From Nitrospirota bacterium (lineage in GTDB: Bacteria > Nitrospirota > Thermodesulfovibrionia > UBA6902): a DNA stretch of 64,000 nt. The first letter of the stretch is position 1, and each line of letters starts with the position of its first letter. Below are positions 15,131 through 27,927 of this stretch, piece after piece. A program made the position numbers and the translations under genes. Below the pieces are notes generated by a model. That model searched no databases. It was not told where the DNA came from and saw only the letters and a list, made by a program, of their open reading frames with translations. Location of the stretch: assembly GCA_016222905.1 (NCBI GenBank), contig JACRPZ010000002.1, positions 5,874 through 69,873 on the forward strand. The letters are read 5' to 3'.

Positions 15131-16597
15131 TCATGCCCAAAACGGCACATATTTTGAATATTTTTTTGACATGTGGTCTTCGTATGACTTAATAAGTCCT
15201 TTGGCAATGGTTTCTTTAATGATGCGTGATGCGATGGCGCTGTTTCTTTCCTCTATTCCAAAGCGTTCCCGTAAACTAGCGTTTGTCATAACTTCTCGTT
15301 TGACGTGCTTTAGACAAGAATGCAGGTAACATGCTCTGATCCTATCTTCTTTCGACATGTCCTTTAATGGCTTATGTGAGAATAAAACGGCACTCGTATG
15401 CTCATCGGTTACTTCAAAGGATGGAGCAGGCAATTGGTAAAATTCAGTTTGAAAAACAACTTTGTCCACGCCGCTGCCGCGTTCTTCGCACACCCCGACT
15501 CTTCTCATAAATGACGCTAGTGCTTCATTTCTGGATTTAGGCGGACTATCAAGAAAACGTTCGGTTTTAACGAGAGGCACGCCAGGGTTGGTAATCTCCA
15601 TGCGATCCGAGAATATTTCAACCATAGGGCCTGTACCACGGATGAAAAAATCTTGATGAATGAGGGCATTTGCCACAAGTTCACGAACTGCTATTTCAGG
15701 ATACATCGGCACTTTCTTGCGTAATGCTTTCTCGATAACTTCATTGACAGGCAAAAGGTTGTTGATAAAACCGATTAATCCTTCGAACCCGGATGCATAA
15801 CCTCTTGTCCCGACCTGCTCCCGAAGCGTTTCGTGTCGACTATTGTCTTTATATACTATTACTCGCGCAGCTTTGCGTTTCAGATGTTTAAAATCATCCA
15901 GCCGCTTGGCGAACAGTATCGCGCCCAAATTTGTAATATTCCATCCTCCAGCAGAACAGACCGAAATCATATCATCATTCAACAGCCTCTGCAGAATACC
16001 GCTTCGATCCTCTGGCAACCCAAGACCGAGCAAATCAAAGTAGGAGGGATAATCAAGAAGTTTCAGGACATCTTCATCAGATATATGTTCGGTTGTTGGT
16101 AAATCCTCAAAAGGAATCTGATCGAAAATTCGCCAAAGCTCTCTCTCTTTTTCGGGAAAGTCTTTCAGTCTTTTTTTGTAGGAACCGATCCTGATAAACT
16201 CATGCCCCTGAAACTGCACCGGCTTGTTCGATGCCCGTGCTATTTCAAGCAACACAACAGGAACAGAATTTACATCAAATTCATAAAAGTGGAAATGTAT
16301 CCGTGGAGAAAGAAGTCTCAATAGCCAATTTTCCAGTTCTTCGTTGCCTTTCTTCAGCGCACCTGGCTTAAATGTCGTGCCGGTAATATCGCACGTATCG
16401 TTTTGAACACCCCATACTAAATAAGCCGATGCTTTGCCTGATAGAGCTGCTGAATTACTTAGAGCAGAAATGTATTCCCCGATTTCCTGTGGATCTTCAT
16501 AATTCAATTTAAATTCTACCCATTCAGTTTCTTTAGGTAGGGTACACAGTTCCCTTAGAAGACCTCTCAGATACTCTGTTGTCCGATCGACGGTCAT
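15131..16597 (-). CDS. AlbA_2 (divergent AAA/Schlafen-like) plus HATPase_c_4 domain protein (often mis-annotated 'RecG-like'), nested between mod and res.
   Basis: N-terminal 'ETEWVEFKLNY...ISALSNSAALSGKASAYLVWGV' (AlbA_2 signature). C-terminal 'ELVANALIHQDF...GTGPMVEIFSDRMEITNPG' (HATPase_c_4). Its start overlaps the mod stop (ATGA). Confidence 0.7.
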   Translation of the reverse strand: MTVDRTTEYLRGLLRELCTLPKETEWVEFKLNYEDPQEIGEYISALSNSAALSGKASAYLVWGVQNDTCDITGTTFKPGALKKGNEELENWLLRLLSPRIHFHFYEFDVNSVPVVLLEIARASNKPVQFQGHEFIRIGSYKKRLKDFPEKERELWRIFDQIPFEDLPTTEHISDEDVLKLLDYPSYFDLLGLGLPEDRSGILQRLLNDDMISVCSAGGWNITNLGAILFAKRLDDFKHLKRKAARVIVYKDNSRHETLREQVGTRGYASGFEGLIGFINNLLPVNEVIEKALRKKVPMYPEIAVRELVANALIHQDFFIRGTGPMVEIFSDRMEITNPGVPLVKTERFLDSPPKSRNEALASFMRRVGVCEERGSGVDKVVFQTEFYQLPAPSFEVTDEHTSAVLFSHKPLKDMSKEDRIRACYLHSCLKHVKREVMTNASLRERFGIEERNSAIASRIIKETIAKGLIKSYEDHMSKKYSKYVPFWA

Positions 16598-18555
16598 ATG
16601 GTTTTAAAATCAACCCCTGCATCGCGCATCTGCAGTACAGTATTGGTTTTAAGTTGATCGTTGCCTGTGAACAGGCTATCAAGGGTGATGACCTTTTGCG
16701 GTTTGTCGGCGATGATTTGCTTTATCAGTTTTTCATTCAGTGCGTCTAAGGCAATGATGAGTTCGTTATTGTTGATGCTGTAATAACCGATAGCCTCTTT
16801 GCTTTTGCTTAGTGGGATATGCTGGACAGAACTGGTAAGTTCGTAACCTGCCTTGAGCATCAGTTCATACAGCATATTTTGCTTCTCGGCTCCGGGACGG
16901 ATGGGATCGGTGAAAGCGTCTAACTGCTCTACTAATTTTTCAGCGCTGTCTATTTCAGCGCCTCTCCAGATTTTGAAACTGGATGATGAAAGCTTGAAGA
17001 CCTTGAAGCCTAAATCCAGCTTGTTATCATTGCTGTATTTTTTTGTCATTCCCGCAGTCTGTAAGCGGGAATCCAGTTCCTTATCCTTAAAAAGACCTTC
17101 TGGATTCCCGTTTTCACGGGAATGACCATCTACGGTATTTCCCTGAATTTTATTAATCACCCTGCGGATGCGTTCCTTCCCTATATCGGCTATGGTTTTG
17201 TAACCTGCCTTGTATGCTTCGCTGTTTTCATCACAAGGTTCAGGCATTTGCACTAAAATAAATTTACGATTGCAGCCGTCTTCTTTGTTGAGTTCTAAAA
17301 CGGCATGGGCTGTGGTGGCAGAACCGCCGAAAAAATCTAGAATAATATCATGTTGATTATTTGATGATCCTTGTTCTAATACTTGCTGCAAAAGTTCTTT
17401 GGGTTTAGGAAAATCAAAATATTCTTTTTCATCAAATAACGTTCTTAGTTCTCTCGTTCCTTGAGTATTAAATACTGTTTCAAGTATCGTTGAAAACCCG
17501 GTGAAATCACTCTCCAAATCATTTAAGAATTTCTTTCTGCGAGGTCTTCCATCTTGTTTAGATGGGAATAAGATTTCATTGTTCTTAATTAATTCCTTCA
17601 TCCGTTTCGGTTCATACCGCCATCCCGTTGGAGGGCATTTGTATATTATTCCTGTTTTAGGGTCTTCAAGATCGTAATGAAGATTTGGACGTTGGTCTTG
17701 TGTTGCTAAGCCTGTCATATCTGCGCTCATCCAATTTCCGCGTGAATCATTATCGGGATTGGAATACTTGGTTAAATCTTTTTCGGCCCCTCTTATTAAT
17801 CCCCTATCTGTCTTGCGATAACATAAAAGATATTCATGATCAACCGATGCTCCATTTTTAGAGCGGCTATCCACATTCTGTCGCCTTTTCCAAATAAAGC
17901 ACGCCACAAAATTCTCCTCCCCAAATATCTCATTCATCACCATCCGAAGGTTATGAACCTCATTATCATCAATGTGAACGAAGATAACGCCGTCATCACG
18001 CAGGAGATTTTTTGCAAGAAACAAGCGGGGATACATCATACTGAGCCAGTTGCTGTGATAGTGGCCACTGTCTTTGCTGTTCTTGCGGAACAGACCTTCT
18101 TTCATCAGAAAGCCTTCTTCGTCCTTATCGCCGATGCGCTTCAGGTAATCCTCTTTCTTCTCGCTGAATCTGTCGGGGTAAATAAAGCTGTCACTTCCTG
18201 TATTGTATGGCGGGTCTATGCAAACTACTTTGACTTTACCGTAATATGCTTTCTGAAAAACCTTCAGCACTTCCAGATTTTCGCCTTCGATAAAGAGGTT
18301 TTCCGTTGTGTCAAAGTTAACGGATTCTTCCGGCGCGGGTTTCAATGTGGCTGTGGTAGGCTGCTGCAGAACTCTAAAGGCATCGCTCTTGCCAGCCCAA
18401 TTCAATACATAGCGTTCATTGACAAAATTGATGTCATCGCCAAAAGCAGCTTTCAGTTTTTCCCAATCCAGTTGGTTCTCTGCAAAGAGTTCGGGGAAAA
18501 GCTCTTTCAGCTTCTGCAGTTTGTTCTGCTTAATATCTTTTGACTCTCCGTCCAT
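16594..18555 (-). CDS. mod: Type III restriction-modification methyltransferase, Mod subunit (N6-adenine, beta class).
   Basis: 653 aa; 'VVCIDPPYNTGSDSFIYPDRF' (motif IV DPPY) and a downstream SAM-binding region. First gene of the minus-strand mod-X-res operon. Confidence 0.85.
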   Translation of the reverse strand: MDGESKDIKQNKLQKLKELFPELFAENQLDWEKLKAAFGDDINFVNERYVLNWAGKSDAFRVLQQPTTATLKPAPEESVNFDTTENLFIEGENLEVLKVFQKAYYGKVKVVCIDPPYNTGSDSFIYPDRFSEKKEDYLKRIGDKDEEGFLMKEGLFRKNSKDSGHYHSNWLSMMYPRLFLAKNLLRDDGVIFVHIDDNEVHNLRMVMNEIFGEENFVACFIWKRRQNVDSRSKNGASVDHEYLLCYRKTDRGLIRGAEKDLTKYSNPDNDSRGNWMSADMTGLATQDQRPNLHYDLEDPKTGIIYKCPPTGWRYEPKRMKELIKNNEILFPSKQDGRPRRKKFLNDLESDFTGFSTILETVFNTQGTRELRTLFDEKEYFDFPKPKELLQQVLEQGSSNNQHDIILDFFGGSATTAHAVLELNKEDGCNRKFILVQMPEPCDENSEAYKAGYKTIADIGKERIRRVINKIQGNTVDGHSRENGNPEGLFKDKELDSRLQTAGMTKKYSNDNKLDLGFKVFKLSSSSFKIWRGAEIDSAEKLVEQLDAFTDPIRPGAEKQNMLYELMLKAGYELTSSVQHIPLSKSKEAIGYYSINNNELIIALDALNEKLIKQIIADKPQKVITLDSLFTGNDQLKTNTVLQMRDAGVDFKTI

Positions 18556-18820
18556 TTATTGCCCAGTTTATCCAATAGTTAAGATATTCCATTTTACCTT
18601 TAAAACAATTATATGGGCAAGGAGAATAAGTTTACGAGATATACCGATTTAGAAACGTACGCTTTTCGTATTTTAATTGTTCTGCCCTTTTAATCGTTAA
18701 TGCCTGCTACTAAAGCTCAATTCCAATATACCATCGCTTTGTAAAGGGTTACGCTGCCTACCATCTCCTGTCAGGCGACATTAAAGATTATTCTGAAGTC
18801 CAGATGTTAAAATCTTAATC

Positions 18821-20401
18821 ATGGAAAAAACTGCTGACAGGATTCTAATCCGCGGGGTGAACTGGATCGGTGATGCGGTCATAACTCTTCCTGCCATAAG
18901 AGCCATCCGTCGTGCCTTTCCTGACGCTCAGATAAGCCTGCTTGTAAAACCATGGGTTGCGGAAATCTTCAAAGGAAGCCCGGATGTTGATGAGATTATT
19001 CTTTATAATGAAGAACACAAAGGCGTTATCGGCAAGCTGAAGCTTGTAAATGTCCTAAGGCAGAAGAAGTTCGACAAAGCCATTTTGCTCCAGAACGCCT
19101 TTGATGCCGCCTTGATCGCATGGCTTGCAGGAATTCCTGAACGTATTGGATACAAGAGAGATTTCAGAGGCTTCCTTTTAACAAAAGCTATCCCCCTAAA
19201 GAACGATGATGTCAGAGAGCATCAGGTCTATTACTACCTGAACCTTATAAAAGAGGCGGGGATTAAGCCTGTAGCCGCAGAGCCCTATATTTATCTGAGC
19301 GATGAAGAAAGAGAGAATGCAAGAGCGCTTTTAAGCCCCTTGCCTCTTACCCCTTACCCCTCACCTTTAATCGGCATCAACCCCGGCGCAACCTACGGCT
19401 CTGCAAAGAGATGGCCTGCTAAACATTTCGCTGAATTAATTCGCAAAATAATAAATGAATTAGACGGAAGGGTAATAATCTTCGGCAGTCCGGCAGAGGC
19501 TGATATTTCAAATGAGATAGTGAAGCAACTCGAAACTCACAACTCAAAACTTAAAACTTCTATTCTAAACATGACCGGCAAGACAAATCTTAGAGAACTT
19601 GCCGCGCTCATATCTGAATGTGATGTCTTTATAACGAATGATTCCGGCCCCATGCATATGGCCGCTGCTTTACATGTCCCTACTGTAGCATTGTTCGGCT
19701 CGACAGACAGTTCAGCAACCGGTCCGTTCGGAGACGGGCATAAAGTTATCACAAAAAAGCTCTCGTGCTCTCCTTGCCTTGAACGGGAATGTCCTGAAGG
19801 TCATCTAAAATGCATGACAGAAATAACTCCTACAGAAGTATTCTCCGCATTACAAGAACTGTTGCCGAAGGAGAAGGCCATATTCCTTGACAAGGACGGC
19901 ACATTGATAGAAGACATGCACTATTTGAATACATTTGATAAGCTGAGGATACTCCCGAATGTAAAGGGAAGCCTGAAGAGATTAAAGGACGCAGGTTTCA
20001 TGCTCATTGGCATAACAAATCAGTCCGGGATAGCAAGGGGGTTTATTGAGGAGAAGTTTGTCAAGGAATCAAACGCATATCTCCAGAAGGAATTCGATAT
20101 GGATGACTTCTACTACTGCCCTCACCATCCTGACGAGCGCTGCTCATGCAGAAAGCCTGAGGTGCTGCTTATGCTTAAGGCAAGGATTGATCACAGGATC
20201 AATTTTAAATCCTCTTATGTAGTAGGCGATAAAGAGTCTGATGTCATGCTTGGCATGAGGACAGGCGCAAAAGGAATTCTACTTGCGCCGGTTCTGTATC
20301 CCGAAAACACTTGCGCCTCTTTTATCGCCAAAGGTCTGGATGACGCTGTCAACTGGATACTGGAGATCGAATCAGCTTCATCCCCCTCTGTGATAGAATA
20401 A
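18821..20401 (+). CDS. Bifunctional ADP-heptose:LPS heptosyltransferase II (WaaF-like, GT9) fused to D,D-heptose 1,7-bisphosphate phosphatase (GmhB-like HAD).
   Basis: N-terminal 'ILIRGVNWIGDAVITLPAIRAIRRAFPDAQISLL' (GT9). C-terminal 'IFLDKDGTLIEDMHYL...GITNQSGIARG...YYCPHHPDERCSCRKP' (GmhB motifs). Confidence 0.8.
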   Translation: MEKTADRILIRGVNWIGDAVITLPAIRAIRRAFPDAQISLLVKPWVAEIFKGSPDVDEIILYNEEHKGVIGKLKLVNVLRQKKFDKAILLQNAFDAALIAWLAGIPERIGYKRDFRGFLLTKAIPLKNDDVREHQVYYYLNLIKEAGIKPVAAEPYIYLSDEERENARALLSPLPLTPYPSPLIGINPGATYGSAKRWPAKHFAELIRKIINELDGRVIIFGSPAEADISNEIVKQLETHNSKLKTSILNMTGKTNLRELAALISECDVFITNDSGPMHMAAALHVPTVALFGSTDSSATGPFGDGHKVITKKLSCSPCLERECPEGHLKCMTEITPTEVFSALQELLPKEKAIFLDKDGTLIEDMHYLNTFDKLRILPNVKGSLKRLKDAGFMLIGITNQSGIARGFIEEKFVKESNAYLQKEFDMDDFYYCPHHPDERCSCRKPEVLLMLKARIDHRINFKSSYVVGDKESDVMLGMRTGAKGILLAPVLYPENTCASFIAKGLDDAVNWILEIESASSPSVIE

Positions 20402-20440
20402 TGAATCTTCTTTATGCAGAGATCGCAGGAATCCTAAAAG

Positions 20441-20535
20441 TTCCCCTCCCTTGAGGGGAGGGGACTAAGGGGAGGGTGAATAAAATGGCGTCTGATACCC
20501 CTCTCCCTGACCCTCTCCCTCAAGGGGAGAGGGAA
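20441..20535. repeat. Intergenic GC-rich palindromic repeat element (CCCCTCCCTTGAGGGGAGGGG ... CCCTCTCCCTCAAGGGGAGAGGG).
   Basis: Two perfect or near-perfect palindromes. The same family is inserted in-frame at 23003-23058. Confidence 0.6.
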
Positions 20536-20575
20536 ATGTATGGTAATCCTGAAGTAAGCGGAAATTACAAATTAA

Positions 20576-21604
20576 ATGAAAATCCTCATTATAAAGCCCA
20601 GTTCTTTGGGGGATATTATCCACGCGCTCCCATTTCTGAAAGCTGTTAAAGATAGGTTCCCTGATGCCTCTGTTGACTGGGCAGTAAGCAAAAATCTGCG
20701 CGGAATTCTCGAAGATAATCCTCTGATAAATGAGCTTATCGTCTTTGATAAGGATTCATGGAAGAGCATCAGGAATATTCCCAAGACGTCAGGAGATATA
20801 TCCCGCTTAAGAAGAACCCTGAAAAGCAGAAACTATGACATTGTGGTTGATCTTCAGGGACTGCTGAGAAGCGGCCTCATGTCGCTCTCAACCCCTTCTC
20901 CTTTGAGAGTAGGCTTTGCGGATGCAAGGGAAGGGAGCCGTTTCATGTATAACAGGAAGGTTTCGGTCAATGGGATTACACACGCGGTTGATAAGAACCT
21001 TGAGATTGCAAAGGCAATCGGCGCAGCGGTAAAAAGGGCTGAGTTCCCGCTGAACATTGACGATAAGTCGAGGAGAAAGATAAAAGCACTTTTGGGTGAT
21101 GTAAAGGAATACATCCTGATTCTTCCGTCTGCAAGATGGTCTTCAAAGAGATGGCCGCCTGAAAACTTTGCGGCGCTTATTTCAAAGCTCTCCATCCCAT
21201 GTGTAATTTCCGGCAGCGGAGCTGACAGAGAAATCTGCCTCAAACTTATAAAAAATATATTTGGAACCGGACAGACAACAAAGCAGCCAAAAATAATCAA
21301 CCTCTGCGGTGAGACAAGCCTGAAAGAGCTTACGGCGCTGATTGAAGGCGCAAAGGCAGTAGTGAGCAATGATTCCGGCCCCATGCATATTGCCGCTGCT
21401 CTCAATAGACCGGTTGTTGCGCTCTTCGGCCCGACCGATCCCTCAAAGACCGGGCCTTACGGCTGGCAGAAGAATAAAAACCTGAAAGTGATCAAGACAG
21501 GCGTTTCATGCAGTCCATGTTTTAAGAAGAGGTGCAAAGAGCCTCTCTGCATGACTGAGATAAGTGCTGAAAGAGTCTTTGATAAACTGAGGGAATATCT
21601 TTGA
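20576..21604 (+). CDS. ADP-heptose:LPS heptosyltransferase (GT9 family; WaaC/WaaQ-like).
   Basis: 'MKILIIKPSSLGDIIHALPFLKAVKDRFPDASVDWAV' and C-terminal 'SNDSGPMHIAAAL' shared with the upstream GT9 gene. Confidence 0.75.
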   Translation: MKILIIKPSSLGDIIHALPFLKAVKDRFPDASVDWAVSKNLRGILEDNPLINELIVFDKDSWKSIRNIPKTSGDISRLRRTLKSRNYDIVVDLQGLLRSGLMSLSTPSPLRVGFADAREGSRFMYNRKVSVNGITHAVDKNLEIAKAIGAAVKRAEFPLNIDDKSRRKIKALLGDVKEYILILPSARWSSKRWPPENFAALISKLSIPCVISGSGADREICLKLIKNIFGTGQTTKQPKIINLCGETSLKELTALIEGAKAVVSNDSGPMHIAAALNRPVVALFGPTDPSKTGPYGWQKNKNLKVIKTGVSCSPCFKKRCKEPLCMTEISAERVFDKLREYL

Positions 21605-22362
21605 GACAAAGAAGATCAAACGGCAAAGAACTTTGGCAAATCTTCATCTTTCTTTCCATTTGCTGTCTGTTCTGCACTTTATGCCCCGCATATGCGTCTG
21701 ACTCTGCAATTAAAGCAAAATTCGTTTATAACATCTACTGGTCGGGCATCAAGGCCGGCGAAGCAACTCTTAGTTATGAAAATACCCCTGAAGGCATTAC
21801 CATAACATCAACGGCGCAGTCAGCTCCTTTCATCTCCATCTTTTACAAGGTTGATGATTTATCACAGAGCATTCTTGCCCCTGATGGTCATCCAAATAAA
21901 TACACAGTTAAGATACGGGAAGGACACCATAGGAAAGACAAAGTAACATATTTCAGCGCAAAATCAGAAAGCAACGCGCAAAAGGTGATTTATACTGACA
22001 AGCTAAAAAATGAAAGGGTTGAATTCGATCTGGAGAAACAGGCATTTGATCCGCTCTCCGCAGCGTATGAAATAAGCAGGCGCAAGTTAATAACCGGCAG
22101 GTCTGAGTACATTGATATATTTGACAATAAAAAGGTCTATAACACGGAAGTACAAGTGCTTGGCAAAGAGAGGATAAACACCCCGGCAGGAGAATTTGAT
22201 ACAATCGTCATAAAGCCTCTCCTTAAGTCAGAGGGTGTCTTCCTTCAGAAGGGGGAAATATATATCTGGCTTACCGATGATGAGAAGAGGATACCGGTTA
22301 TGTTAAAAAGCAAGGTAAAGATCGGAAGTTTCACGGCAGAATTAGCGGAAGGGGTGGAGTAA
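21601..22362 (+). CDS. Secreted/lipoprotein-like DUF3108-family protein (LPS-cluster associated).
   Basis: Signal peptide. The 'YNIYWSGIKAGEATLSYE' pattern resembles DUF3108. Start overlaps the upstream stop. Confidence 0.4.
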   Translation: MRQRRSNGKELWQIFIFLSICCLFCTLCPAYASDSAIKAKFVYNIYWSGIKAGEATLSYENTPEGITITSTAQSAPFISIFYKVDDLSQSILAPDGHPNKYTVKIREGHHRKDKVTYFSAKSESNAQKVIYTDKLKNERVEFDLEKQAFDPLSAAYEISRRKLITGRSEYIDIFDNKKVYNTEVQVLGKERINTPAGEFDTIVIKPLLKSEGVFLQKGEIYIWLTDDEKRIPVMLKSKVKIGSFTAELAEGVE

Positions 22363-22709
22363 AGCTGAGGCTTGGAGATTAAACCCAAATAATGCAGACA
22401 TTGTTCATAAATTAGTATGTCAAAAACATACAAAAGTGAGGAAGATAATCTTATTTACATTCGCTCACTTGAAGTGAGCTTTGCTTTTAATTTAACTCGA
22501 TGAATTTTTTATTAAAATGATGTTTAAGTTTTTACATGAAAATATACGCTGGTACTTTGATTATAATTACGTTAAGGTATCGAAAAATAAATTAGAGGCT
22601 TCGCCTCAATGTATGGATAATCTTATTAATTAAATTGCTATACTTCGTATAGCTTGCATTTATTCACAACATCTGCATTATTTCAAATGCATTTTTTGGA
22701 TTAAGAATT

Positions 22710-23483
22710 ATGCTTTCTGTTGCCATAATCACTCACAACGAAGAAGAGAATATTAAAGACGCCCTTGAAAGTGTAAAATGGGCGGATGAGATTGTAGTCG
22801 TTGATTCTTTCAGTACTGACAGGACAGTGGAGATTTGCAAGAAATATACTGATAAAGTCTTTGTTTTCGAGTGGCCGGGTTTTGCAGAGCAGAAGAATAA
22901 AGCCGTTTCATTGACAACACAGCCGTGGGTGCTTGTGCTTGATGCTGATGAAAGGGTTACAGAGGCTCTAAAGAATGAGATTCTCAAGGCAATTAGAGAC
23001 CCGTACCCCTCCCCCAACCCCCTCCCTCAAGGGGAGGGTGCAAGGGGGAGGGTGGATGGTTACTATTTAGCGCGTAAAAACCATTTTGCCGGAAGATGGA
23101 TAAGGCACGGAGGCTGGTGGCCTGATTATACACTGAGGCTTTTCAGACGCAGCAAGGGATCCTTTCAGCCAAGAGAAGTGCATGAGTCAATAAAGATCAA
23201 CGGCAAAACAGGTCATTTAAAGAACCCTCTTGAGCATTTCACTTATAAAGATACAAACGATTATCTGACGCGAATGGAGAACTACTCAACGCTTGCGGCA
23301 AAAGAGCTTTATAAAGAAGGCCGCCGCGCCTGCATCTTTGATATAATGCTCAGACCTGCCGCCACCTTCTTCAGGATGCTCTTCCTTCAGGCCGGCTTCC
23401 TTGACGGAACCTATGGTTTTAAGCTGGCTTACCTCTATTCCCGTTATACATTCAACAAATATTCAAAACTGAGGAGAATGTGA
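22710..23483 (+). CDS. Family-2 glycosyltransferase (LPS core type), with a 20-codon in-frame insertion of a palindromic repeat.
   Basis: 'MLSVAIITHNEEENIKDALESVKWADEIVVVDSFSTDRTVEI' and 'LVLDADE' (DxD) are GT2 signatures. 'PYPSPNPLPQGEGARGRVDG' is encoded by the repeat. Confidence 0.8.
   Translation: MLSVAIITHNEEENIKDALESVKWADEIVVVDSFSTDRTVEICKKYTDKVFVFEWPGFAEQKNKAVSLTTQPWVLVLDADERVTEALKNEILKAIRDPYPSPNPLPQGEGARGRVDGYYLARKNHFAGRWIRHGGWWPDYTLRLFRRSKGSFQPREVHESIKINGKTGHLKNPLEHFTYKDTNDYLTRMENYSTLAAKELYKEGRRACIFDIMLRPAATFFRMLFLQAGFLDGTYGFKLAYLYSRYTFNKYSKLRRM
23003..23058. repeat. GC-rich palindromic repeat element inserted in-frame inside the GT2 CDS (cccctccctcaaggggaggg core).
   Basis: Same core palindrome as the intergenic element at 20441-20535. 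Encodes PLPQGEGARG without interrupting the ORF. Confidence 0.6.
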
Positions 23484-23509
23484 AAGGACAGCTATCTACT
23501 CCGCATTAT

Positions 23510-24106
23510 CTACTTCCTGAATCTTATGAACATATAAAACCCGATGAGGAAAGGGACGAACTTAATAACCATCTCTTCTGAAAATACCCATAGGAATTGA
23601 TAGACAGCCATACGGATTTTACCGACTGAATCAAAACTCTTTCCAACAAGGGCCATGGTCAGCTGCGCTGTCTCACTAAAATAAATAGTAAGGAGATGCG
23701 TGGCAAATAGGAGAAGCAAGCCCTCGATATACGCCCTTCTCTTCACAAATGGGAAGAGGGCGGCCATTATCCCAAACGTCAAAGGGACATTAAAGGTATA
23801 TGAAGAGGTCTTTACCGGTATATCTATTACTAAACCGGCATTATGCCTTAAAGGCCTGAATGTTGCCCGAATTACATCAGTCCCCATCTGAGCAAGCTCC
23901 TCGAACTCAACTTCTTTAGTAAGACTGACCAGACGAGCCGCAATATTTATTACCCCGTAACTATAGATGTCCTTCACCTGTATCCAGAGAAGCAGAGAAA
24001 TAAGATAGGAGACGAGAAAGATGACGGCCGTCTTGAGGATTATTTCCTTATTGAGCGGTTGTTTTATAATTCGTTGCATAGCGAAGATAGATAAAGAATA
24101 CGGCAA
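23510..24106 (-). CDS. Polytopic membrane protein of unknown function, downstream of the exosortase-like gene.
   Basis: Several hydrophobic helices. The 5' end overlaps the upstream ORF by ~30-60 nt, so the start is uncertain. Confidence 0.35.
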   Translation of the reverse strand: MPYSLSIFAMQRIIKQPLNKEIILKTAVIFLVSYLISLLLWIQVKDIYSYGVINIAARLVSLTKEVEFEELAQMGTDVIRATFRPLRHNAGLVIDIPVKTSSYTFNVPLTFGIMAALFPFVKRRAYIEGLLLLFATHLLTIYFSETAQLTMALVGKSFDSVGKIRMAVYQFLWVFSEEMVIKFVPFLIGFYMFIRFRK

Positions 24107-24605
24107 GGGCTACAGCTATCATTATGCCCTGTGCAACATAGATATGGATATAGTAAAAGAGGTTCTTAAAATGAATCCCTGCATATGCCAGCCCCGCTAT
24201 TCTCAGGATGTTCACGGCTTGTATCACCAGAAAACCTGCCAGAACACCAATGACCTTCTTCTTCCAGCCGGCAGGAAATGCGATTACCGCAACGGAATAT
24301 ATCATTACAGCCTCAAGTCCGTTGCATCCGAACTTCACATCCAGGGAAATACCCGGTACGTTTATGATGGATTTATTATAAGCGCAGGGGATGCCGGTTA
24401 CTGCCAAGACCTTTGCTGTAACAAAGACCACACTCTTCGTATAAATATCATCGATATCTATCTTGTTTGTCAGCGGTTTAAATACCAGCAGGAAATAGAA
24501 AAATCCCATTACTGCAAGATAAGTGATAACAAAACGCCCCACGCTTATTTGAGGTTTTGAAGGTTTTACATCTTTTTCAAAGTGGGAATTTTTCTTTTTT
24601 TTCAC
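24048..24605 (-). CDS. Short exosortase/archaeosortase-family-like membrane protein (candidate sorting transpeptidase).
   Basis: 185 aa, multi-TM. The conserved-looking Cys in 'KFGCNGLEAV' and Asn/Arg in 'AVNILRIAGL' match the C...N-x-x-R catalytic arrangement of exosortases. Adjacent to two genes with IPTL-CTERM-like tails. Confidence 0.45.
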   Translation of the reverse strand: MKKKKNSHFEKDVKPSKPQISVGRFVITYLAVMGFFYFLLVFKPLTNKIDIDDIYTKSVVFVTAKVLAVTGIPCAYNKSIINVPGISLDVKFGCNGLEAVMIYSVAVIAFPAGWKKKVIGVLAGFLVIQAVNILRIAGLAYAGIHFKNLFYYIHIYVAQGIMIAVALAVFFIYLRYATNYKTTAQ

Positions 24606-24715: not shown

Positions 24716-25684
24716 TTAAACTTTCTTATATTTTCTAAGATAATAGATTGACCCAAGCCCTGCAACCGCCATGAAGATTATCATGCCCCACTCGTTCATT
24801 GTTGGGACAGCAATAATACTCCAGTTCACCACTTGGCTTAACTGCAGAGGGGTTAATCCATCCAGAGATCCTGAGGGTAAAGTATCCAGACTGTCAAATA
24901 AGGCTGCTGATGCAATTGCGCCGGCGATTGTATTGCCATTTCCGGTAATATCTCCCAGCCCTGCAAAGAGCATGAGAGATCTGGTTTGGTTAGCAGGAAC
25001 AGAGACATCGTATGTGGCTCCTATTCCGTTAGTAGCCGCGCAGTCAAACACGGTTTGAGTATAAGCGCTTGGAATTACAGATGCGTTAGGTCCATATAGT
25101 ACAGTAGTATTAACGGGATCCGATGGACCGGAATCGCTTGTAACTACCCAGCGGTCATCTGTGGCGAATGTTGTGTCCCCGGATGATGTCATCTGCACTA
25201 TTGAGCTGCTATCAGAACCAAGGTTTACGGGTATATCCACAGTTGCATTTATTGTAGAGCCGGTCGGGTTATTAAGGAATACCATTATCCTTGCCACTGC
25301 AGCGAGGGTGTCAAAATAATACTGGACAGTAACATTCAGACCTGACATGGCCACAGGCCCGGCAGTTATGGTGGTGTCTGTCAGGTCAACTGTGCTTCCC
25401 GGAGCAAAGACAGCGCCGTCTACAAATACCAGATAGGCAGCGTCATACGCGTCACCGGAACCGGCAGGGCCATTGGCATCCCAAATACCAAACCCTGTCC
25501 CTGCTACACAAGTGCCGGTATACGGGGCGCCTGTTGTAGTAGTAATTTGATCAATGCCCGTCCAGCTTGTTGAGAAGAATCCCGGCGACACGGTCTGGGG
25601 AAGGCTGACAGGCGCAGCATAGACATTGGCTGAAGCAAACACAAAGAACAACAATAATACTAAAGAGACTGACCGCTTAAACAT
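24716..25684 (-). CDS. Secreted protein with a C-terminal IPTL-CTERM-like sorting signal.
   Basis: N-terminal signal peptide. The C-terminus 'VPTMNEWGMIIFMAVAGLGSIYYLRKYKKV' has a motif, a TM helix and a basic cluster, resembling the IPTLSEWG-type sorting domain. Confidence 0.6.
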   Translation of the reverse strand: MFKRSVSLVLLLFFVFASANVYAAPVSLPQTVSPGFFSTSWTGIDQITTTTGAPYTGTCVAGTGFGIWDANGPAGSGDAYDAAYLVFVDGAVFAPGSTVDLTDTTITAGPVAMSGLNVTVQYYFDTLAAVARIMVFLNNPTGSTINATVDIPVNLGSDSSSIVQMTSSGDTTFATDDRWVVTSDSGPSDPVNTTVLYGPNASVIPSAYTQTVFDCAATNGIGATYDVSVPANQTRSLMLFAGLGDITGNGNTIAGAIASAALFDSLDTLPSGSLDGLTPLQLSQVVNWSIIAVPTMNEWGMIIFMAVAGLGSIYYLRKYKKV

Positions 25685-25915: not shown

Positions 25916-26944
25916 CTAAACGCTGTGTCTTCTCCTTAAATAATAAATTGCCCCAAGCCCTGCAAGCGCCATGAAGATTATCATGCCCCATTCGTTTATG
26001 GTGGGTACCGTTAGCCCACCGGATACAGCCACTCCCCAAGGGCTATTCAAGGTAGTTGAGCCGCCTGAGATGGTTTGAGCAGGCACCACATTTCCACTAG
26101 CACTTATCGGAAATACCGTGATGCTGTTATTAGGTGGATAGTTTGCCGCATATATTGAGCTTGCATCCACCGCTATCGCAACAGGGTTGTTCAAGGCCGT
26201 TGAGCCTCCTGAGATGGTGCGGGTGGGTGCTGCATTCCCAGTTGCGTTTATCGGGAATACCGTAATGCTGTTAGTATTATAATTTGCCACATAAATCCAG
26301 CTTGCGTCCACTGCTATGCCGGCAGGGTTGTTTAATGTCGTTGAGCCGCCTGAAATGGTGCGTGTGGGAACAACATTTCCAGTGGCGTTTATCGGGAATA
26401 CAAGAATGCTGTTATTAAAATTAGTCACATACATCCAGTTGGCATCAACCGCTATTTCATTAGGGAAGTTTAAGGTAGTTGAGCCGCCTGCAATTGTGCG
26501 AGTCGGCGCGACGTTCCCAGTGGCGTTTATCGGAAATACAACGATGTTATGATTTAAATAATTTGTTACATAGATCCAGTTGGCATCTACGGCTATCCCT
26601 GAAGGGAAAGGGGCAAGGTTTGTTGAGCCTCCTGAGATAGTGCGGGTGGGCGCAACATTCCCAGTGGCGTTTATCGGAAATATGGTGACGCTTCCGTTAT
26701 TATTTGCCACATAAATCCAGTTGGCATCTATATCAACCCCGCGGCAGCCGTTCAATGTTGTTGCCCCGCCGGCGATGCTGGTTGTGGGCGCTGTGTTGCC
26801 TGTGGCGTTACTAGGCCATGTTGCGACACTGGAGCCAATAAAGTTAGATACATAAATATCTGCCCGCGCCTCAAACGGGTAAAGAGAACCGACACTCAGT
26901 AAAACCAAAAAAGATATAACAAAACAAAAAAGCCTCTGCCGCAT
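25916..26944 (-). CDS. Secreted beta-propeller repeat protein (7 x ~42-aa repeats) with a C-terminal IPTL-CTERM-like sorting signal.
   Basis: Repeats of 'SITVFPINATGNxAPTRTISGGSTxLNNPxGIAVDAxWIYVANY'. Tail 'VPTINEWGMIIFMALAGLGAIYYLRRRHSV'. Signal peptide. Confidence 0.65.
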   Translation of the reverse strand: MRQRLFCFVISFLVLLSVGSLYPFEARADIYVSNFIGSSVATWPSNATGNTAPTTSIAGGATTLNGCRGVDIDANWIYVANNNGSVTIFPINATGNVAPTRTISGGSTNLAPFPSGIAVDANWIYVTNYLNHNIVVFPINATGNVAPTRTIAGGSTTLNFPNEIAVDANWMYVTNFNNSILVFPINATGNVVPTRTISGGSTTLNNPAGIAVDASWIYVANYNTNSITVFPINATGNAAPTRTISGGSTALNNPVAIAVDASSIYAANYPPNNSITVFPISASGNVVPAQTISGGSTTLNSPWGVAVSGGLTVPTINEWGMIIFMALAGLGAIYYLRRRHSV

Positions 26945-27228: not shown

Positions 27229-27927
27229 TTATGAGAATAACCTAAAGAGTGCAAAGGTAATGGTTGAACCTAATAACGCCCCTAAAATGACCTCCCACGG
27301 CTTATGTATGCCGACGTAGACCCTGCTCTGTGCGATAAGCACAGCCATAAGAAGCACAAGTAAAGATATGACAAAGTTCTCGCTGAGAAAAACAATCGCA
27401 ACCCATACGGAGAACGCAACGGCGGCGTGGCCGCTCGGCATCCCACCTTTCAGGGGTGTTCCCTTTCCGACAAGCGACTTTGTAATTACTACCATTATGA
27501 GCACCGCTATAAGAGAGATGACGGCTATAGTGTCTTCGGTCTGCTTTGCTACTTCAAGGCCGCTGTAGAAGAGATCTCTGAGCGGTTTAAAGAGGATAAT
27601 ATACCCGATAACAGCTGCGCCTATTGAAGTTATTAAGACCGCTCCCGCGGCGATATCTTTAATCGCTTTTGCTCTCTTGTCATAATCCGGGAAGAGTATA
27701 TTTACAATATCTTCAATTGCGGTGTTAAGCATCTCTGTTGAAATAACAATAATGGAGAGGGCGATTATAAATAAAAAATCCGTGCCTCTTACCCCGATAA
27801 CCAGGCTGAGTATAAGCACCAGCATAGAAGCGTACATGTGATAACGCATGTGTTTCTGCGTTTTTGCGGCATGGAGAATGCCGTTGATGGCGTAATTGGC
27901 ACTCTCAAACCACTTTCTTAAGGGCAT
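27229..27927 (-). CDS. Fusion of a DgkA-family (diacylglycerol/undecaprenol kinase) domain with a PAP2 phosphatase domain.
   Basis: N-terminal 'ANYAINGILHA...EMLNTAIEDIV...AKAIKDIAAGAVL' matches DgkA. C-terminal 'GGMPSGHAAVAF...SRVYVGIHKPWEV' matches PAP2 motifs 2 and 3. Confidence 0.7.
   Translation of the reverse strand: MPLRKWFESANYAINGILHAAKTQKHMRYHMYASMLVLILSLVIGVRGTDFLFIIALSIIVISTEMLNTAIEDIVNILFPDYDKRAKAIKDIAAGAVLITSIGAAVIGYIILFKPLRDLFYSGLEVAKQTEDTIAVISLIAVLIMVVITKSLVGKGTPLKGGMPSGHAAVAFSVWVAIVFLSENFVISLLVLLMAVLIAQSRVYVGIHKPWEVILGALLGSTITFALFRLFS

Follow-up and report, generated by a model that had tools for sequence, protein, structure and literature searches.

The three GC-rich repeat sites in the window, the whole 64-kb stretch of DNA that was analysed, are very probably members of the BoxC / PIT (potential intrastrand triplex) / TMECO family of intrastrand-triplex-motif repeats (Holder et al., Nucleic Acids Res 2015, PMC4666352), and the copy located within a family-2 glycosyltransferase (GT2) gene is a four-box insertion. 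E. coli has been known for thirty years to carry BoxC/triplex-motif repeats; the 2015 paper cites earlier work by Hoyne/Maher and by Bachellier. The window repeats, which all lie in a cluster of lipopolysaccharide genes, are a modest extension of this known repeat family. The relevant features are given below by window position.

20402..20575, no strand: spacer of 174 nt with the A/B pair, between waaF-gmhB and the next heptosyltransferase gene
20443..20533, no strand: inverted pair of copies A and B, ~20 nt apart, of two different stem subfamilies
20443..20477, plus strand: copy A, three-box repeat, from a pattern scan and reading of the sequence
20443-20450, plus strand: copy A C-box CCCCTCCC, then loop TTGA
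20455-20463, plus strand: copy A G-box 1 GGGGAGGGG, then loop ACTAA
20469-20476, plus strand: copy A G-box 2 GGGGAGGG, then T
20498..20533, minus strand: copy B, three-box repeat, CCCTCTCCC CTTGA GGGAGAGGG TCA GGGAGAGGG G
22710..23483, plus strand: GT2 host gene of the LPS-core cluster, encodes a 257-aa family-2 glycosyltransferase
23005..23054, plus strand: copy C, four-box element in GT2, ACCCCTCCCCC AA CCCCCTCCCT CAA GGGGAGGG TGCAA GGGGGAGGGTG

Three copies are present in the 64-kb window where none would be expected, and the earlier note's description of small, dispersed palindromic repeats is borne out by these non-random occurrences. The 20-mer CCCCTCCCTCAAGGGGAGGG is found exactly at 23019-23038, for which shuffled sequences predict 0.00 matches, and with two mismatches at 20443-20462 and 20512-20531. 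The same note had regarded this 20-mer as a palindrome; the exact occurrence and the two intergenic two-mismatch copies stand, but the palindrome is not a perfect one, and its true stem is a 7-bp pair (CCCTCCC/GGGAGGG) that forms part of the larger four-box element at 23005-23054. A relaxed three-box pattern likewise recovers only the sites of copies A, B and C in the window and yields 0 matches in 200 shuffles, and no further copies were found elsewhere in the 64 kb. Half-sites at 27754, 29247, 30262 and 31663 have no partner box and were rejected as chance occurrences. Relatives carry 0-3 copies per 16-21-kb locus, and several MAGs were matched on two or three contigs among the matches listed; a high copy number in the host organism is extrapolated from 64 kb of its genome.

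In the family unit, a C-box is followed by a complementary G-box and then by a second, mirror-symmetric G-box, with a short loop ahead of each G-box, and the TMECO pattern is defined as 5'-CCCTCNCCC N3-6 GGGNGAGGG N3 GGGNGAGGG-3' (PMC4666352). Copy B is an exact match to this published pattern at 20499-20533 on the minus strand, as found by a regular-expression search. Copies A and C fit only the relaxed pattern, as their stems span 7-8 nt and lack the variable middle base, and their second loop has 5 nt versus 3 in strict TMECO, which makes them variants rather than exact representatives. The G-boxes are mirror-symmetric in copy A (GGGGAGGGG/GGGGAGGG), copy B (GGGAGAGGG/GGGAGAGGG) and copy C (GGGGAGGG/GGGGGAGGG). 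A purine-motif (class II) triplex needs the second G-box to be a mirror repeat of the first. Single-stranded DNA of the unit would be expected to fold into a hairpin and might also adopt a purine-motif triplex, which CD and NMR have demonstrated in vitro for the E. coli sequence only, and which has gone undetected in vivo even in E. coli (PMC4666352). The A/B pair as a single strand is computed to form a composite hairpin of -54.2 kcal/mol as RNA (z -3.3) and -27 kcal/mol as DNA (z -4.1), values for which ViennaRNA considers Watson-Crick and wobble hairpins only, and the copy C hairpin is computed at -41.1 kcal/mol as RNA and -19.3 as DNA. The four-box element is also compatible with a plain long hairpin or, given its four G-runs, a G-quadruplex.

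The resemblance to the E. coli repeats extends to sequence and layout. Copy B matches E. coli DNA at 80-95% identity in 5052 of 5426 genomes, with a median of 6 places per genome in unannotated DNA, and its best places reach 86% identity over 44 of 51 nt. The E. coli yijF-gldA spacer holds an inverted pair laid out like A/B, in keeping with the inverted pairs of type A with type B described for E. coli BoxC (PMC4666352). This layout recurs at many loci; in the window, the stems of the pair are CCCTCCC for copy A (plus strand) and CCCTCTCCC for copy B (minus strand). The three-box architecture is present on at least 120 GTDB contigs from many phyla and on at least 120 metagenome contigs, and that of copy A in particular is found in at least 147 GTDB-genome instances and at least 127 metagenome instances. 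Element copies are mostly intergenic (36 of 39 instances on low-GC contigs, among the matches listed) and occur in both orientations, with no preferred orientation or distance to neighbouring genes. The published survey counted TMECO motifs in 262 proteobacterial genomes, noted related G/C-rich motifs in cyanobacteria and other bacteria, and placed all 23 of the 23 BoxC copies of E. coli MG1655 between genes (PMC4666352). Insertion within genes has thus not been among the traits described for this family, and an intergenic position is a habit reported for the E. coli copies more than a formal criterion. The family is dispersed over many bacterial phyla, chiefly between genes, in both orientations and often as inverted pairs of two subtypes.

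The window elements therefore share with BoxC/PIT/TMECO the three-box build, a near-identical sequence, the inverted pairing of two subtypes, a mostly intergenic location and the absence of an orientation bias. They and their relatives likewise lie in locally variable DNA, and the literature ties the family to local recombination and instability (PMC4666352). Several features nonetheless differ: these repeats come from a Nitrospirae/Thermodesulfovibrionia MAG, the stems of copies A and C are shorter and their second loop has 5 nt, and the GT2 copy is a fused four-box palindrome that sits in frame inside a gene, whereas the E. coli MG1655 copies are intergenic. The same architecture and near-same sequence extend from E. 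coli to Nitrospirota, Planctomycetota, Chloroflexota and Bacteroidota, which implies strong convergence or else a copying mechanism of very wide distribution.

Copy C is composed of two overlapping three-box motifs, at 23018-23052 on the plus strand and 23006-23038 on the minus strand, and can be viewed as a symmetrical four-box version that would present one three-box motif per strand. It codes for residues 99-115 of GT2, YPSPNPLPQGEGARGRV. Empty and filled GT2 sites are alignable at the DNA level, and this alignment reveals that 8 nt (CATCAAAA) of the insert-free alleles have been swapped for the 50-nt element, such that the net gain is 42 nt, or 14 codons, rather than the 20 codons given in the earlier note. 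Residues 99-115 stand in for the three residues SSK of insert-free orthologs, and the flanking P98, D116 and G117 are native. GT2 stays open because the net gain is 42 nt and the element contains no stop codon in any of its six frames. The claim that the repeat had colonised this gene without breaking its frame holds, as evident by the intact frame at 22710-23483, in which the DAD motif and other conserved residues are kept.

Among 119 GT2 orthologs, the insert is absent from ~96, present in 16, and replaced by a longer or partly deleted loop in 7. Orthologs that lack the repeat thus also lack the residues, which runs counter to the possibility that these are native sequence. One ortholog (P0003) keeps both element ends and has lost the centre. 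An AlphaFold2 model of GT2 (mean pLDDT 85, with residues 99-112 below 50) leaves residues 97-116 without secondary structure between a helix at 85-96 and a strand at 117-126. The insert is therefore predicted to form an unstructured, floppy loop, in agreement with the loop placement that the earlier note had proposed, and the protein would accommodate the Pro/Gly-rich 17-mer as a disordered loop, located past the helix that comes after the DAD motif.

Near-identical 50-nt copies were also found in genes for a 4Fe-4S protein, TsaB and a 2-oxoacid:ferredoxin oxidoreductase, and the element is present in only 5 of 111 orthologs of the Fe-S gene. All four intragenic four-box copies, GT2 included, are read in one shared frame, PSPxPLPQGEGARGRV. 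No paper on BoxC/PIT/TMECO beyond that of Holder et al. 2015 was found, and this four-box palindromic version, in frame in at least four unrelated enzyme genes from related bacteria, goes beyond the literature searched. In one insert-bearing protein, the NTP_transferase match is split into two stretches. Three of the four-box copies have a common 5' flank (AATGAAAWT), and at locus L060 the 3' flank is ATTTTTTCAT. The window copy has neither flank; such flanks might represent short terminal repeats, or belong to a longer element.

The distribution of filled and empty alleles bears on how they arose. In a tree built with the insert masked, insert-bearing and insert-free GT2 sequences are interleaved at the tips. 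The empty allele P0042 and the filled allele P0011 differ at 2 of 205 nt at the 5' end, at 30 of 95 nt just upstream of the insert and at 25 of 392 nt downstream, and P0011 has 1 mismatch with P0008 in the last 30 nt before the insert and is divergent from it further upstream. A similar divergent patch adjoins the insert in the Fe-S gene. From these comparisons we infer that filled and empty alleles coexist in close relatives and that homologous recombination probably exchanges them in short tracts that end at the element; such apparent movement of presence/absence alleles is likewise beyond the literature searched. The interleaved tree could alternatively reflect repeated independent insertion at one hotspot, and a longer 5' extension in P0017, P0018 and P0025 hints at more than one insertion event. 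The earlier note had suggested a recombination or regulatory hotspot; the link with recombination fits both the mosaic alleles and the literature, but a regulatory role is unsupported, as no promoter-like or terminator-like site was found at the elements. The divergent patch beside the element in filled alleles of two genes provides a testable handle on the proposed link between the motif and local genome instability.

It is possible, though we consider it unlikely, that in Nitrospirota and neighbouring anaerobic lineages the four-box BoxC derivative acts as a mobile, frame-neutral mini-insert and gene-conversion anchor. Such an insert would target loops of housekeeping and cell-envelope enzymes, always read PSPxPLPQGEGARGRV. 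If so, strains would shuffle filled and empty alleles between them, diversity would be concentrated beside the element, and the repeat would represent a structure-driven generator of allelic mosaicism inside genes.

REP/REPIN elements moved in trans by a single-copy RAYT (an IS200-like Y1 HUH transposase) offer another explanation that we judge to be quite improbable. RAYT-type enzymes excise and insert single-stranded hairpins without generating target duplications. At the two empty/filled pairs available (GT2 and the Fe-S gene), no target-site duplication was found, the outcome to be expected of a single-strand mechanism; no target motif was found either, and a few native bases are replaced. 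The window elements also resemble REP, BIME and REPIN sequences in being short, GC-rich, imperfect palindromes that fold as hairpins, are mostly extragenic without orientation bias, are often arranged as inverted pairs, and occasionally lie in genes, a location on record for REPs (PMC3733652). However, no GTAG/CGTC tag abuts the stems of copies A-C or of ~270 listed instances, and the sole CGTC (20489-20492) falls in the A/B spacer. The window elements carry a third box, a mirror repeat, and the members of their pairs belong to different stem subfamilies, whereas the two halves of a REPIN have the same sequence. Box sequences of the window elements are absent from the REP survey (PMC3733652). 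At 120 loci among the matches listed, no recurrent protein family was found in the 1.5 kb around the element. When 1832 ORFs lying up to 1.5 kb from 147 listed instances were compared all-against-all by BLAST, the largest cross-locus cluster comprised 5 loci, in a survey that would rarely sample a single-copy RAYT gene. No RAYT was seen in the DNA examined and no transposase linked to the element was found; the authors of the E. coli BoxC study likewise reported no link to transposons, phages or plasmids (PMC4666352). The label 'REP/MITE-like' used in the earlier note is therefore right only in kind, and the more precise family is BoxC/PIT/TMECO, with no tag at the stems, no RAYT in the DNA examined and no visible target duplication.

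Other small repeat systems are less similar to the window elements. MITEs (Correia, Nezha, ERIC etc.) are also small non-autonomous repeats that can produce in-frame fusions, but the window copies lack terminal inverted repeats bounded by a target-site duplication and are far smaller than a typical MITE. In some relatives only, there may be short AATGAAAAT / ATTTTTTCAT ends. A pair of 26-nt inverted repeats (22387-22412 and 22658-22683) upstream of GT2 may delimit a MITE in a region where relatives are unalignable. Rickettsia palindromic elements (RPEs, ~150 bp) are similarly small palindromes found in frame in unrelated housekeeping genes, where the added peptide is tolerated. RPEs are AT-rich, are not known outside Rickettsia and have no sequence relationship to the window element, which at 50 nt is GC-rich, has a Nitrospirae host and is part of a family found across many phyla, and so is not an RPE.

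We consider it very unlikely that the Pro/Gly-rich segment has been selected as a protein module, for instance a flexible linker or an interaction motif of the PxxP type, with an incidental palindrome. The frame shared by the four intragenic copies could signify peptide selection, and many lineages have retained insert-bearing GT2 alleles in which the remainder of the protein is conserved. Against this, synonymous sites are near invariant inside the element and saturated outside it, as evident by the 47 of 49 identical positions between the window element and that of P0017, compared with 61-77% identity for the rest of the gene. Moreover, most copies of the sequence are intergenic and in both orientations, close insert-free alleles are common, and the segment is predicted to be disordered. 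Because conservation of the element's nucleotides far exceeds that of the codons around it, and unrelated genes share these 50 nt, we infer that the element is probably a DNA-level passenger rather than a selected module. Such elements can occur in frame in essential enzymes, where they persist as predicted disordered loops with the DNA almost unchanged.

Still less probable is a function as a cis-regulatory RNA or DNA structure, whether a terminator or an mRNA stabiliser in the interval from waaF to the following gene, a hairpin that sequesters SD/anti-SD sequences or a G-quadruplex switch. The predicted hairpins are of high stability (-41 and -54 kcal/mol as RNA), the boxes include GGAGG and CCTCC, four G-runs in the G-rich half fit a G-quadruplex motif, and the A/B spacer uncouples two genes that overlap in relatives (L002 and L003). 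However, no terminator-like or promoter-like site overlaps the elements, which show no consistent orientation or spacing relative to adjacent genes and are missing from the same positions in close relatives. A search of 18500-24000 against Rfam (E-value <=10) returned nothing at threshold, the best match being Pab91 at 34 bits versus a gathering cutoff of 71, and published assays of the family revealed neither promoter nor terminator activity (PMC4666352). In a third relative (L127), the alignment shows a different three-box repeat upstream of the heptosyltransferase gene.

An origin of the insert as an assembly artefact, or as low-complexity sequence that arose by chance, is next to impossible: the window is part of a metagenome-assembled genome, and mis-joins can occur at repeats, but independent NCBI, JGI, ENA and Logan assemblies contain the same in-frame insert at the same codon, zero shuffle matches are expected, and the flanks are continuous with orthologous sequence.

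The BoxC-like inserts have a practical consequence for annotation, as they introduce Pro/Gly-rich segments of the 'PLPQGEG' type into annotated proteins, where matches to Pfam domains can be split by them. The stretch 'PLPLTPYPSPL' of waaF (19335-19368), which the earlier note thought might be a degenerate copy, does not belong among them. It has no complementary G-box, folds with only -0.2 kcal/mol, and was rejected as a decayed copy. The waaF linker is at its modal length (8-9 aa in 97 of 120 orthologs), and the closest orthologs carry the same-length N[PLS]SPIT[PH]HPSPL; this segment is a native linker with no palindrome.

The GC-rich repeats picked out in the earlier note are borne out by the 20-mer CCCCTCCCTCAAGGGGAGGG, which matches the window perfectly at 23019-23038 and with two mismatches at 20443-20462 and 20512-20531, and which found no match in 100 dinucleotide-preserving shuffles. 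Paired C-rich and G-rich boxes (C-box and G-box) are confined to these two loci, one intergenic and one within a family-2 glycosyltransferase (GT2) gene, as judged from counts of 7- to 9-nt half-sites across the window; no partner box was found for four isolated half-sites elsewhere in it. The palindrome described previously is present, but its structure is richer. The true stem of the 20-mer is a 7-bp pair (CCCTCCC/GGGAGGG), and the intergenic copies A and B carry three boxes apiece, not two. The genic copy C has four boxes, an order that yields one three-box motif per strand.

Repeat copies and host genes in the window
18821-20401, heptosyltransferase II (waaF) fused to a GmhB-type phosphatase
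20443-20477, + strand, copy A: C-box, TTGA, G-box, ACTAA, G-box
20498-20533, - strand, copy B: layout as copy A, stems CCCTCTCCC/GGGAGAGGG
20576-21604, heptosyltransferase I-like GT9 protein
21601-22362, DUF3108 protein
22710-23483, GT2
23005-23054, copy C, within GT2: four boxes, C2-C1-loop-G1-G2

Folded as single strands, copy C reaches -41.1 kcal/mol as RNA and -19.3 kcal/mol as DNA, and the A/B pair -54.2 and -27 kcal/mol, respectively, with z-scores for these folds ranging from -2.3 to -4.1.

The three-box layout is that of an intrastrand triplex motif (TMECO), earlier named BoxC or PIT, whose published pattern is CCCTCNCCC N3-6 GGGNGAGGG N3 GGGNGAGGG (Holder et al., 2015; PMC4666352). 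These authors counted 3610 copies across 262 proteobacterial genomes, and reported related G/C-rich triplex motifs from cyanobacteria and other bacteria. In E. coli MG1655 all 23 copies are intergenic and without strand bias, and five loci are inverted pairs that join type A with type B every time. The single-stranded motif forms a triplex in vitro, whereas none was detected in duplex DNA or in vivo. They saw no tie between the motif and transposons, phages or plasmids, earlier work discussed there had found no promoter or terminator activity, and the DNA around the motif varies between strains more than control regions do (PMC4666352).

Copy B fits the published TMECO pattern exactly. The 51 nt around it align at 80-95% identity to 5052 of 5426 complete E. 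coli genomes, at a median of six places per genome outside any annotated feature, and the E. coli yijF-gldA spacer holds an inverted pair like that at window positions 20443-20533. In copies A and C, which are variants, the stems are shorter and the second loop has 5 nt. On this sequence evidence, the window elements belong to the BoxC/PIT/TMECO family, as members or as variants. The REP/MITE-like interpretation offered earlier was right in kind, although the pattern and the E. coli matches assign the elements to this other family.

A scan of GTDB, with one genome per species and the pattern CCCTCCC N3-8 GGGAGGG N4-10 GGGAGGG, found the three-box arrangement on at least 120 contigs. The matches listed come from Alphaproteobacteria, Chloroflexota, Planctomycetota, Nitrospirota, Desulfobacterota, Myxococcota, Bacteroidales, Zixibacteria, Atribacteria and others, at locus GC contents of 0.41 to 0.77, and at least 147 instances share the layout with loops that are clade-specific. 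A low-GC subfamily found by a metagenome scan has at least 127 instances, with the consensus tTC CCCTCCCTTGATGGGAGGGG AyWAA GGGGAGGGTGa, and many of those listed have an inverted partner of another stem subfamily 12-25 nt away. Many three-box copies at other loci (L131-L250, e.g. L154, L193 and L178) are followed by a common tail, ATTTTCATTCCCCTTTGTG, and could be building blocks of a longer, mosaic element.

The segment within GT2 is an insertion, as evident by the orthologs that do without it. A short loop such as NDPSSKDGYY occupies the site in 96 of 119 orthologs, while 16 carry YPSPxPLP(Q or DTS)GEGxRGRV and in seven the loop is longer or in part deleted; one ortholog (P0003) that keeps both element ends and lacks the centre is a decayed copy. 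Alleles without the insert (empty) read ...CCG T CATCAAAA GATGG..., and the window reads ...CCG T, 50 nt (ACCCC...GGGTG), GATGG.... The gene is thus 42 nt (14 codons) longer overall, and the in-frame insertion proposed earlier stands at this smaller size instead of 20 codons. Residues 99-115 are encoded by the element, whereas P98, D116 and G117 are native. An AlphaFold2 model built from a 51-sequence alignment (mean pLDDT 85.2) leaves residues 97-116 without secondary structure between a helix (85-96) and a strand (117-126), with residues 99-112 below 50. The modelled insert thus fits the suggested surface loop, disordered and tolerated by the protein, but a low pLDDT does not prove exposure.

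A proline-rich stretch of waaF (19335-19368, 'PLPLTPYPSPL') had also been proposed as a degenerate copy, and this proposal does not hold. Between ...ARALL and IGINPGATY, the linker is of modal length (8-9 residues in 97 of 120 orthologs); N[PLS]SPIT[PH]HPSPL, of equal length, stands there in the nearest orthologs (78-88% identity); and the DNA lacks a complementary G-box and has practically no fold (-0.2 kcal/mol). The stretch is a native linker. Longer inserts of a different repeat type occur in the same linker in 23 of the 120 orthologs (e.g. AIHESPLPRKGVLQ or GHSPLHRTPNKLSKGVLPYAP in P0145-P0154 and P0173), and these look like in-frame copies of another small repeat family.

Insertion into genes is not peculiar to GT2. 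A near-identical 50-nt four-box form, (A/G)CCCCTCCCCCAnCCCCCTCCCTCrAGGGGAGGGGGCrAGGGGGAGGGTGG, lies in GT2 (the window and the related loci L002 and L126), in a 4Fe-4S sulfhydrogenase-beta-like protein (L060), in TsaB (L189) and in a 2-oxoacid:ferredoxin oxidoreductase (L237), and all of these copies read PSPxPLPxGEGARGRV. Of 111 orthologs of the Fe-S protein only five have the insert, which is missing from orthologs at 84% identity. Three-box copies, putative insertions there, are read in frame within a GT4-type glycosyltransferase, a nucleotidyltransferase, a PIG-L deacetylase and CobB, and a long open frame at L182 holds several. The four-box form, its insertion in the Fe-S gene and the in-frame copies in other hosts go beyond the literature searched. 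Long ORFs carry information on low-GC contigs, and there 36 of the 39 instances fall between genes, which makes intragenic location the less common outcome. At L242 and L157, in-frame repeats break up or lengthen the Pfam domain matches of the encoded proteins: the NTP_transferase match falls into two stretches, and the PIG-L match covers residues 22-184 where its profile has 129 positions, a practical hazard for annotation. At L001, from a relative, two further three-box repeats (6088-6202) lie in the spacer upstream of a 603-residue membrane protein (6195-8003) containing PPHPPLLKGGRGDSQGK, which is probably another in-frame repeat.

Between the window and the ortholog P0017 the element is identical at 47 of 49 positions and the remainder of the gene at 61-77%, so it is at the nucleotide level that synonymous positions within the element are held or homogenised. 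On this comparison, constraint on the DNA, or exchange with other copies of the element, is a likelier explanation than constraint on the peptide. The common reading frame of the intragenic four-box copies (n=4) calls for caution, since it could reflect constraint at the peptide level.

Filled and empty GT2 alleles (with and without the insert) interleave near the tips of an insert-masked neighbour-joining tree in at least seven places. Across residues 1-80 or 141-250, many filled sequences are nearest to an empty one (92-98% identity), whereas across residues 81-95 their nearest neighbours are other filled ones. Empty P0042 and filled P0011 differ at 2 of 205 positions at the 5′ end, at 30 of the 95 nt immediately upstream of the insert and at 25 of the 392 nt downstream. 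Over the 30 nt that lead up to the insert, filled P0011 and P0008 differ at one position, and farther upstream P0008 resembles the empty allele. We infer that short recombination tracts of varying length move the insert between backgrounds, and that the element would be a passenger at the DNA level and not a protein module under selection. Independent insertions at the GT2 site are an alternative explanation, and an extra 5′ AATGAAAAT-type extension in P0017, P0018 and P0025 hints at more than one event. The divergent patch might otherwise stem from localised mutagenesis beside the structure. A comparable patch (15 of 31 mismatched) lies directly downstream of the insert in the Fe-S gene.

In that gene (L060 5580-6743, - strand), AATGAAAAT and ATTTTTTCAT border the insert. 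The insert has a 3′ tail, CAGAGATTTTTTC, that is the adjoining coding sequence, GAAAAATCTCTG, in reverse complement; the two make an extra 12-bp hairpin, which is kept in a second filled allele (L060, L253).

Among the 120 loci listed, neither a transposase nor any other protein family is linked to the element, no REP tags (GTAG/CGTC) abut the stems in copies A-C or the instances listed, and no target-site duplication appears in the GT2 and Fe-S empty/filled comparisons. The genic copy behaves similarly to Rickettsia palindromic elements and intragenic REPs, but is a member of neither. The earlier finding is real; its interpretation holds in kind, errs on waaF and is imprecise on size, and the phenomenon extends a known family and is no new kind of system.

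A 106,915-bp contig of a Nitrospirae MAG encodes GT2 and WaaF proteins identical to those of the window, and relatives are labelled Nitrospirae, Nitrospirota or Thermodesulfovibrionia. The waaF-gmhB and GT9 genes overlap in L002 and L003, and in a close relative (L127, ~215-250) the site of the A/B pair upstream of GT9 holds a three-box repeat of another subfamily, CCCCTCTAAAAAGAGGGGTGCAGGGGTGTGT. The 174-nt window spacer with the A/B pair is therefore lineage-specific, and no promoter-like or terminator-like site overlaps it. The spacer between DUF3108 and GT2 is unalignable with relatives. Within it, 26-nt inverted repeats (22387-22412 and 22658-22683, 85% complementary) enclose a 245-nt, very AT-rich stretch (GC 0.23-0.29) with several terminator-like hairpins, and this may be another inserted element. 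Immediately upstream of the LPS-core cluster, a 653-residue ORF with a DPPY motif (16594-18555, - strand) resembles a putative DNA methyltransferase. An exosortase (EpsH-like) gene adjoins two genes that share a 74-nt C-terminal segment at 86% identity (24048-24605, 24716-25684, 25935-26008, 26055-26728); the segment looks like a PEP-CTERM-type anchor, and one of the two genes contains ~141-nt tandem repeats. Finally, paralogous repeats at 1900-6120 (300-nt copies, 66-84% identical, spaced ~1.3-1.5 kb apart) suggest three tandem related genes.
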